From NCBI GenBank assembly GCA_009886115.1, contig VFJJ01000045.1, positions 2,224-66,223 of the forward strand: a stretch of DNA of 64,000 bases, given 5' to 3'. Below the pieces are notes generated by a model. The model was not told where the DNA came from, made no database searches, and was given only the letters and a program-made list of their open reading frames with translations. This stretch comes from Actinomycetota bacterium. Its GTDB lineage: Bacteria > Actinomycetota > Acidimicrobiia > IMCC26256 > VFJJ01. This document shows positions 6,159 to 7,729 of this stretch, piece after piece; the first letter of the stretch is position 1; the number at the start of each line of letters is the position of its first letter. Made by a program: the position numbers and the translations under genes.

Positions 6159-7729
6159 CCCGGGTGCTGCTGGTGTCGACCTACGAGCTCGGGCGCCAGC
6201 CCTGGCACGTGGCGTCGCCCGCCGCGTCCCTCCGAGCCCGCGGTCATGCCGTGCAGGCACTCGATCTCGCGGTCGAGACGTGGGACGACCGTCGCTTCGA
6301 CACGGCCGAGGCCGTCGCCATCTCCGTTCCCATGCACACCGCAGCCCGCTTGGCTGTCGAGGTCGTGGCCCGGCTGCGGTCCGAGAGGCCGGGGTTGCCG
6401 ATCGCGCTCTACGGCCTCTACGCGCCCCAGGTTCCCGATGGGCTGGTCGACGCGCGATTGGGTGGCGAGTACGAGCCGGCGCTCGCGGCGTGGGTGGAGC
6501 AGGTCGGCAGCGGCGGTTCCGACGGCGGATGCTCCGAGGGGGCCAGCGGCGACACGGGCCCGGTCGGGACCCCGAGCTCCGGCAGAGGTGGTGGCGGTGG
6601 CGGCGCCGACGCCACCGTCTCGATCGGGCGCTCGATGTTCGTGCTCCCAGCTCGCGACCTGCTCCCGCCGCTGAGCCGCTACGCCCATCTGGTACTGGGC
6701 GACGGCCGCGAGGATGGCGACGGCCGCGGCGACGCGGGCGACAGCGACAGCGACAGCGACAGCGACAGCGACAGCGACAGCGACAGCGACAGCGACAGCG
6801 ACAGCGAGCATCGCCTCGTGGGGACCGTCGAGGCCACGCACGGCTGCACCGAGCGCTGCCGCCACTGCCCGCTGCCCGCGGTGTACGACGGGCGGACCCG
6901 CGCCCTGCCCGTCTCGCTGGTGATGGCCGACATCGAGCAGCTCGTGGGTCTGGGGGCCGGCCATGTCACCTTCGCCGACGCCGACTTCCTCGCCGGGCCC
7001 GCCCACGCCCGACGGTTGGTCGAGCAGTTCAGGGAGCGGTTCACGGCCCGAGGGATCACGTTCGACGTGACGACCAAGGTGGCGCACATCCTGCGCCATG
7101 ACGCCATCGTGGCCGAGATGGCCGCAGCCGGCTGCCTCTTCGTGGTGACCGCCGTCGAGAGCCTCAACGACCGCTTGCTCGAGCTGCTCGACAAGGGCCA
7201 CACCGCGCTCGACGCCGCCCGGGCCATGGCGGGCCTGCGCAGGCACGGTATCGAGCCCCACCCCACGTTCTTGCCGTTCACGCCCTGGACCCGTCCCGGC
7301 GACGTGGCCGACCTGTGCGAGTTCCTCGAGGTCCACGATCTCCTCGACGTCGTCGACCCGGTCCAGCTGTCCTTGCGGCTGTTGCTCCCCGAGGGATCGC
7401 TGCTGCTCGCGCTCCCCGACATCGAGCCGCATCTCCTGGGCTACGACGCCGATGCTCTCACCTGGCGCTGGCGGGCGGCCGATCCCGATGTCGACGTGCT
7501 CCAACGGCGCCTCGCCGCTCTCGTGGCCGAGGCGATCGCCAGCGGCGAGCCCAGCACCGCCACGTGGGAGCGGATCTTCGGCGCCTGCGGGCGCCGTGTG
7601 CGCTCCGCCGGTCCCGGTCCCAGTCTCGGGCCCGACGCGACGCGACGGCGGAGACCGCGCCTGAGCGAGCCCTGGTTCTGCTGAGCGGAACCGACCGAGG
7701 GCCAGGTTGGCTCTCTCCGAGTGCAGTAG
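6155..7729 (+). CDS. B12-binding-domain-like radical SAM protein, probable CUAEP-tail selenoprotein (TGA at 7682-7684 read as Sec; stop TAG at 7727-7729)
   Basis: The N-terminus MTRVLLVSTYELGRQPWHVASPAA... has a Rossmann/B12-like layout. The radical SAM cluster motif is CTERCRHC (CxxxCxxC). The track ORF ends ...SEPWFC at TGA, and the next codons are GCG GAA CCG = AEP, giving C-U-A-E-P. A stem-loop starts 3 nt after the TGA. The coordinates up to 7684 are secure; the extension to 7729 is inference. Confidence 0.7.
6740..6805 (+). repeat. (GACAGC)x11 perfect hexanucleotide microsatellite encoding (Asp-Ser)x11 inside the radical SAM gene
   Basis: Counted directly: 11 uninterrupted GACAGC units from 6740 to 6805. 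They lie in the linker just upstream of the CxxxCxxC motif. Confidence 0.95.
7687..7714 (+). promoter_or_regulatory. candidate SECIS-like stem-loop immediately 3' of the in-frame UGA
   Basis: CCGACC (7691-7696) pairs with GGUUGG (7705-7710), 6 bp including one G-U, around an 8-nt loop GAGGGCCA. The stem extends through GGA (7687-7689) paired with UCU (7712-7714) across an A/C mismatch. This was folded by eye; no energy was computed. Confidence 0.4.

Follow-up and report, generated by a model that had tools for sequence, protein, structure and literature searches.

A radical S-adenosylmethionine (SAM) gene in a 64,000-nucleotide stretch of an Actinomycetota bacterium (contig VFJJ01000045.1; hereafter the window, meaning the whole stretch analyzed) very probably does not end at the in-frame TGA at positions 7682–7684, which would instead be a selenocysteine (Sec) codon. 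The full recoded coding sequence occupies positions 6155–7729 of the + strand and would encode a CUAEP-tail radical SAM selenoprotein of 524 aa, that is, 509 aa followed by Sec510, a 14-aa tail and a TAG stop. Cys509 (TGC) and Sec510 (TGA) form a dyad at 7679–7684, identified from the sequence, its translation and codon counts in homologues, and the translated tail AEPTEGQVGSLRVQ with its stop (7727–7729) covers 7685–7729. The gene adds a divergent member to a protein family that has been curated before and whose Sec/Cys position was known; the recoding as such is not new.

The coordinates, codons and extended peptide of an original prediction, which had proposed this recoding, match the sequence exactly. 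On the + strand the frame reads CTG AGC GAG CCC TGG TTC TGC TGA (7682–7684) GCG GAA CCG ACC GAG GGC CAG and continues GTT GGC TCT CTC CGA GTG CAG TAG (7727–7729), with the stretch EPWFC-U(TGA)-AEPTEGQ at 7667–7705. Translation from ATG 6155 gives a peptide ending ...RLSEPWFC-U-AEPTEGQVGSLRVQ*. This start (MTRVLLVSTYELG) agrees with the consensus start of the homologues, MRVLLVSTYELG, and the GTG at 6023, where the mechanically called ORF (open reading frame) begins, was rejected as an over-extension since the homologues begin MRVLLVSTYELG, which fits ATG 6155. A long minus-strand ORF (4910–7831) was likewise set aside as a high-GC shadow of the + strand genes; the + strand frames have a third-position GC bias of 0.81–0.88 in a window of 69% GC. 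TGA is an ordinary stop here, ending 37 of the 43 called ORFs in the window, so that a lone TGA is uninformative and the argument depends on the homologues.

We compared the DNA of 84 homologous loci (designated by L numbers, and their proteins by P numbers), which together with the window yielded 83 sequences with a readable codon after EPWFC; one locus cut by a contig end and one without the motif were left out of the count. This codon was TGA in 45 sequences, TGC in 31 and TGT in 7, with no other codon observed. TGA followed by the AEPT tail was thus found in 44 independent loci besides the window, belonging to different phyla, and after every TGA the in-frame sequence AEPT(E/S)(G/D)Q(F/L/V)G(P/S)L... 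continued for 11–40 codons. The expectation of Sec or Cys at exactly this position, followed by AEP, was therefore borne out (TGA in 45 sequences against TGC or TGT in 38). The best 120 database homologues divide about equally into those that end exactly at EPWFC and those that continue as EPWFCCAEPTxxQ.

The region downstream of the TGA evolves as coding sequence. Over the four codons after the UGA in 34 distinct sequences of the Sec type (those with TGA), minor alleles numbered 1, 2 and 38 at codon positions 1, 2 and 3, and this concentration of variation at third positions indicates that the codons are translated. In relatives with 50% identity the tail differs synonymously, for example with GAG in place of GAA and CCC in place of CCG. 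The closest relative, L001 (assembly GCA_031362415.1), has a 75% identical protein in a fully syntenic locus and reads TGT TGA GCG GAA CCG ACC GAG GGC CAG GTT GGC TCT CTC...; the first 35 nt after the TGA are identical between L001 and the window in spite of the protein divergence, which argues that the region is under purifying selection. The L001 tail is 24 codons longer through an in-frame indel. Together with the minor-allele counts by codon position, this indel bears out the coding-type conservation of 7685–7729. The indel (L001 8386–8510 versus window 7682–7729) is flanked by short direct repeats (GCTCTCTCCG), and the variable end of the tail tolerates changes in length while its first 11 codons are fixed.

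Sec and Cys forms are interleaved on a neighbor-joining tree, with at least 14 switches between them. The tail DNA of one Cys form (L017, position 3005, TGC) hardly differs from that of the Sec forms L023 and L032 (11363) and already carries one change, GGT to GGC, that breaks a hairpin described below. Judged from these sequences, L017 looks like a recent Sec-to-Cys conversion in which the recoding signal is decaying.

The signal proposed here is a hairpin of the type of a bacterial selenocysteine insertion sequence (SECIS), located at 7697–7715 on the + strand by minimum free energy (MFE) folding and covariation. It consists of GAGGGCC (7697–7703), the loop AGGUU (7704–7708) and GGCUCUC (7709–7715), and a 12-nt spacer separates it from the UGA. 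The computed energy is −12.0 kcal/mol, which becomes −12.4 kcal/mol with an optional eighth pair (A7704–U7708) that would leave a GGU triloop, and it is also the stem of the MFE fold. The form shared by Sec-type loci is GAGGGCC-AGUUC-GGCCCUC. Of 42 distinct Sec-type sequences, 37 form all seven pairs, whereas the 38 Cys-type sequences form a median of two (Mann-Whitney p=9e-15). In alignment A2, 95.4% of cells are paired and four of the seven pairs show double-sided changes (16 compensated cells); this covariation was reached by none of 500 shuffles, and sliding the register collapses the pairing. Variant stems include GAGGACC/GGUCCUC, GAGAGCC/GGCUCUC, GAGCGCC/GGCGCUC and GCGGACC/GGUUCGC, and the stem of one locus, L046, is wholly different (GGCGCUC/GAGCGCC). 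In some compensations, one side replaces the amino acid (GGC to GAC, Gly to Asp) and the other is silent (GGC to GGT), which points to selection at the RNA level. The peptide of the Sec forms (TEGQFGPL) is more uniform than that of the Cys forms, as expected of one sequence constrained both as RNA and as protein.

This hairpin is not the one originally predicted. The stem proposed at first, CCGACC (7691–7696) with GGUUGG (7705–7710), does exist, with an energy of −9.4 kcal/mol, but it starts 6 nt and not 3 nt after the UGA, and of the three additional pairs claimed for it two form and the third does not. It is mutually exclusive with the hairpin at 7697–7715. As a SECIS candidate it was rejected, because it is not conserved: 73% of cells are paired, one of its six pairs fails in 21 of the 34 Sec-type sequences and another in 29, its covariation is no better than that of shuffles, and the overlapping hairpin at 7697–7715 is the conserved one.

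Selenocysteine insertion signals in E. coli require a spacing of about 11 nt (fdhF) and a G-U in the loop. The bSECISearch model is said to place the loop 16–37 nt from the UGA. A bacterial SECIS element has been defined as a stem-loop immediately 3' of the UGA (PMC9312934). Like that of E. coli fdhF, the window hairpin is a stem-loop 3' of an in-frame UGA and inside the coding sequence, and it resembles fdhF-type elements in its 12-nt spacer, its stem of 7–8 bp and a small apical loop with G in second position. It differs in having a family-specific sequence that matches no Rfam model, and we regard its SECIS role as putative. Searches of Rfam with the whole window at the gathering score, and with 7600–7800 at E≤10, returned chance matches only and no SECIS.

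Profile searches place the protein in NCBIfam NF040546, the "CUAEP/CCAEP-tail radical SAM (seleno)protein" family, which the original prediction had named and which is by a wide margin the top-scoring model (E=2.1e-143, 478.4 bits for the extended protein with U read as C). Alignment to the homologues and to this model confirmed both the Sec/Cys column and the AEP residues: the extended protein spans profile positions 1–467 of 468, and its CU dyad shares a column with the CC or CU of the 83 homologous loci. The truncated 509-aa form scores 457.7 bits, the 15-residue extension adding 20.7 bits, and removal of two low-complexity insertions raises the score to 490.3 bits (profile 1–467). The window gene shares with the family the EPWFC-[U/C]-AEPT..Q tail, a B12-binding-like N-domain, a CxxxCxxC core and full-length alignment; it differs in its sub-cutoff score and in the two insertions, which have no counterpart in most homologues.

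The expected architecture of a B12-like N-domain followed by a radical SAM domain was also recovered, through a Pfam Radical_SAM match (E=1.3e-14), a weak B12-binding match, the CxxxCxxC motif and fold matches obtained for the homologue P0003 (see below). The [4Fe-4S]/SAM motif (Cys231/Cys235/Cys238) was read from the sequence at 6845–6868 (+ strand), and its columns are invariant in the homologues. The match to B12-binding PF02310 (E=2.6e-4, 21.3 bits) lies below the gathering score of 32.1 bits, which makes the use of cobalamin doubtful. On the neighbor-joining tree, the window and L001 are sister to L012 and L005, and the L012 protein (P0011) is named as an NF040546 family member by NCBI. 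The closest protein homologue (P0001, from L001) is 75% identical and, at 474 aa, 35 aa shorter than the 509-aa window ORF, identity to the other NF040546 members is 47–54%, and the best locus among GTDB representatives is 52% identical. NF040546 has been listed among the few selenoproteins with a CU motif, as uncharacterized (Haft 2022, bioRxiv 10.1101/2022.07.06.499078). A 2026 review of the prokaryotic selenoproteome lists other radical SAM selenoproteins (TIGR04167, TrsS); it was not returned by a full-text search for the family name and to that extent apparently does not list the NF040546 family.

Several observations weigh against the recoding. All three NF040546 scores (457.7, 478.4 and 490.3 bits) fall just below the curated cutoff of 500 bits, which is an annotation threshold and not a biological feature; the sub-cutoff score may explain why automated annotation ends the gene at the TGA. 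Part of the conservation of the hairpin is at the protein level, since conserved codons overlap with it. Folding of the region, proposed in the original prediction, gave a divided result: the MFE structure contains the 7697–7715 stem, but 7676–7745 folded alone is not significant (z=−0.78 at 69% GC), so that the single-sequence fold is uninformative and the RNA evidence is entirely comparative. No selA, selB, selD or tRNA-Sec was found within the 64-kb window by ARAGORN, Rfam, Pfam or tblastn, the Pfam search covering the 42 called window ORFs with the radical SAM gene scanned separately, the tblastn queries being approximate E. coli SelA, SelB and SelD sequences, and a few intergenic or uncalled stretches (e.g., 29.7–32.5 kb and 61.2–64 kb) being covered by tblastn probes only. 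A scan for in-frame TGA read-through revealed no other candidate selenoprotein gene in the window, although its filters excluded the target radical SAM gene too.

These absences, together with the ordinary use of TGA as a stop, are what speaks for the explanation that TGA 7682 terminates translation, the Sec machinery being absent or lost, or the gene derived from a Sec-using donor, and that the protein is a 509-aa form with a single Cys whose tail and hairpin are relics. We consider this very unlikely. The hairpin is intact, with seven of seven pairs, the 35 nt shared with L001 indicate purifying selection, and lineages that dropped Sec moved to TGC or TGT and did not keep TGA; moreover, 64 kb is a small fraction of a genome, so that the missing sel genes say little. 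Elsewhere in the family, selA (TIGR00474, 292 bits) was found 9.3 kb from the Sec-type gene in L082 (20746–21408) and also near the Cys-type gene in L081 (9012–9713), both within 7–10 kb. ARAGORN found no tRNA-Sec in 43 Sec-type loci. The L081 contig is binned as Burkholderiales, which may reflect a binning error or transfer. A non-coding explanation, in which the hairpin is a terminator or attenuator before the downstream enoyl-CoA hydratase gene and the open frame is accidental, would account for a stable hairpin of −12 kcal/mol positioned where an ORF caller puts the gap between two genes. It has next to no probability, given that neither a U-tract nor a terminator-like site was found after the hairpin, that third-codon-position periodicity is strict and Cys-type homologues translate the same AEPT..Q tail, and that the tail stays constant across loci with different genes downstream. 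A single base separates TGC from TGA, and a sequencing or assembly error, or a recent TGC-to-TGA nonsense mutation causing a pseudogene-like truncation, might be suspected; the occurrence of this TGA at 44 further loci in different phyla, together with a hairpin absent from the Cys forms, makes this vanishingly improbable.

Across the homologous loci, the comparisons thus show a gene that has evolved as Sec/Cys-variable, with a tail conserved as translated sequence and a covarying SECIS-like hairpin. In the mechanism that we propose, the hairpin at 7697–7715, inside the TEGQVGSL codons, would act as a bacterial SECIS and recruit SelB with Sec-tRNA(Sec), the ribosome would insert Sec510, and translation would then run 14 more codons to the TAG at 7727. 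We infer that UGA 7682 is decoded in this way in the source organism, which requires selA, selB, selC and selD elsewhere in its genome.

What the protein does can be approached through its nearest characterized relative. The runner-up profile is NF040542, the arsinothricin enzyme ArsL with an RCCLKC tail, which scores 226–238 bits over the core. This is far below the NF040542 cutoff of 450 bits and the RCCLKC motif is not present, and by these profile comparisons the window protein is a paralogue of ArsL, not ArsL itself. From SAM, ArsL generates methylthioadenosine and a 3-amino-3-carboxypropyl species bonded to cluster iron, and its three C-terminal RCCLKC cysteines bind As(III), being essential for formation of the C-As bond and not for SAM cleavage. 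To our knowledge, ArsL is the only enzyme known to form C-As bonds via a non-canonical radical SAM route. The two proteins have the same domain layout and carry soft-ligand residues at the extreme C-terminus; they differ in the tail itself, C-U-A-E-P with two chalcogen ligands versus R-C-C-L-K-C with three cysteines, and in their setting, there being no arsM, arsQ or other ars genes nearby in the window, where the partner is an ATP-grasp ligase. The recoded product, 524 aa long, would combine a B12-binding-like N-domain and a radical SAM core with the C-terminal motif Cys509-Sec510-Ala-Glu-Pro. By analogy with ArsL, its flexible Cys-Sec tail would deliver a soft substrate (metalloid, metal or chalcogen) to the [4Fe-4S]/SAM site, and the ATP-grasp enzyme would ligate the resulting amino acid. 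We put forward this combination of soft-substrate delivery and ligation tentatively, as a possibility suggested by ArsL.

The functional proposal has its own difficulties. The tails of the two proteins do not align, the match to the ArsL profile ending at position 408 of 423; the surroundings of the cassette hold no conserved arsenic or metal genes; and NF040546 is uncharacterized in all its members (Haft 2022, bioRxiv 10.1101/2022.07.06.499078). The main functional rival, which is the view of the original prediction, also has Sec decoded, but takes the Cys-Sec dyad as a redox-active selenenylsulfide that shuttles electrons or resolves an enzyme intermediate and does not hold a metalloid. Thioredoxin reductase carries such an adjacent Cys-Sec pair (GCUG) at a flexible C-terminus, and the dyad of the window protein has the same arrangement; both the failure of the tail to align with RCCLKC and the lack of conserved arsenic or metal genes around the cassette are in keeping with a redox role. 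We nevertheless hold it to be rather unlikely. ArsL, the closest characterized homologue, uses its C-terminal cysteines for substrate binding and not for redox chemistry, and CU dyads, which are uncommon, cluster in proteins dealing with heavy metals, such as are MerB-like proteins, HgcA and MerT (Haft 2022, bioRxiv 10.1101/2022.07.06.499078). A further lead in this direction, a weak one, comes from a preprint figure legend in which DUF169, found near some of the cassettes, has merR and hgcA genes as its neighbors in Nitrospina; the literature searched on DUF169 was otherwise uninformative.

An AlphaFold model of the Cys-type homologue P0003 (tail CCAEPTEGQLGSLRS) was obtained with a predicted local distance difference test score (pLDDT) of 88.5 and a predicted template modeling score (pTM) of 0.89. 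It contains a disordered linker (pLDDT ~45) followed by the block RPRLTEPWFC (~82), and confidence drops again after the dyad; in this model, the RPRLTEPWFC motif may be docked against the enzyme body. The best structural matches were AprD4 (6fd2, E=5e-15, template modeling score 0.66), TsrM, MgmA, OxsB and MiaB. The model shares a Rossmann-like N-domain and a radical SAM barrel with AprD4 and the cobalamin-dependent radical SAM enzymes TsrM, OxsB and MgmA, yet identity is only 13–19% and the B12-binding match of the window protein is sub-threshold; AprD4 is itself cobalamin-independent. A sequence search of the PDB gave remote matches only, with no close solved relative and no ArsL structure.

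The radical SAM gene lies directly downstream of an ATP-grasp gene of the L-amino-acid-ligase type (ATPgrasp_N / ATP-grasp_4 / LAL_C2 in Pfam; 4803–6158, + strand, starting at ATG 4803 or ATG 4764). The two overlap by an ATGA (6155–6158, + strand) in which the start codon of the radical SAM gene sits on the TGA stop of the ATP-grasp gene, and the same 4-nt overlap occurs in L001 (genes at 5585–6967 and 6964–8388). The two genes would be co-transcribed and are probably translationally coupled. In NCBIfam, the ATP-grasp gene weakly matches BacD and DdaF, two ligases that form dipeptides. It was found directly upstream of the radical SAM gene by tblastn in at least 63 of the 84 other loci, of both Sec and Cys types, and ORF clustering identified an ATP-grasp partner in 76 of 82 loci; the group formed by L002–L004 lacks it. 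The hosts of this cassette are Actinomycetota from soil and sediment (Acidimicrobiia, Solirubrobacterales/Thermoleophilia, Gaiellaceae) and Chloroflexota. The cassette may represent an undescribed ArsL-like pathway, in which the 3-amino-3-carboxypropyl group of SAM would be transferred onto a metalloid or chalcogen held by the tail (C-As, C-Sb, C-Se or C-S) and the ligase would then make a dipeptide antimetabolite, for which bacilysin, bialaphos and dapdiamide serve as models; we consider this specific pathway, drawn by analogy, improbable.

Beyond the ATP-grasp gene and, in 18 loci, DUF169, ORF clustering across the loci detected no conserved neighbor. The DUF169 gene (Pfam; 3305–4018, − strand) has counterparts near the cassette in 17 other loci (18 with the window), within the compared flanks, and is sometimes immediately downstream of the radical SAM gene (L039, L054, L067 and L077). 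Between it and the ATP-grasp gene lies a divergently transcribed gene for an NfuA-like Fe-S carrier (4074–4742, − strand; NCBIfam TIGR03341 NfuA, E=9e-27, below cutoff), and a NifU gene occupies the same place in L001, to which the synteny of the NfuA-like gene is limited. Downstream, the enoyl-CoA hydratase gene (ATG 7755) is syntenic only in L001, the downstream gene varying among loci.

One of the low-complexity insertions in the radical SAM gene is a perfect in-frame hexanucleotide repeat, (GCGACA)x11.7, at 6738–6807 (+ strand), which encodes a run of SD dipeptides and is absent from most homologues. It sits just upstream of the radical SAM core and is preceded by a Gly-rich insertion at ~6500–6610. 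Given its perfection, the repeat likely varies in length between strains.

Elsewhere in the window, a tRNA-Arg(ACG) is followed by a probable integrated defense island (49176–61185), with genes for a tyrosine integrase, an M78 peptidase-like protein, DUF4411 and type I restriction-modification (HsdM, HsdR); the HsdR has a C-terminal Schlafen/AlbA_2 domain, and a DarT ADP-ribosyltransferase gene adjoins a Macro-domain (DarG-like) gene. ARAGORN also called an 89-nt tRNA-Val(CAC) at 8854–8942, inside a luciferase-like oxidoreductase gene and on the opposite strand, which in view of its lack of an Rfam match is probably a false positive. At 24116–24161 (− strand), a MalQ-like 4-alpha-glucanotransferase gene and a downstream FMN-reductase gene share a frame with a TGA between them; this candidate was rejected, as it looks like two ordinary adjacent genes.

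Ending the gene at the TGA costs the annotation 15 residues, among them the Sec of the Cys-Sec dyad that is the signature of the family, and given the sub-cutoff score, rule-based pipelines are likely to miss the recoding. The recoding itself will not surprise a specialist; an ArsL-like pathway, if true, would be of higher interest. Neither the definition of the SECIS nor the ATP-grasp partnership was found in the literature searched, and both extend a known kind. The SECIS, with its compensatory changes, offers a clean example of dual constraint on RNA and protein (TEGQFGPL) in a family that is widespread in uncultured soil Actinomycetota and Chloroflexota. Taken with the near-universal ATP-grasp partner and the paralogy to ArsL, it leads to a testable hypothesis, namely that these bacteria may carry out an organo-metalloid or organo-selenium amino-acid chemistry.

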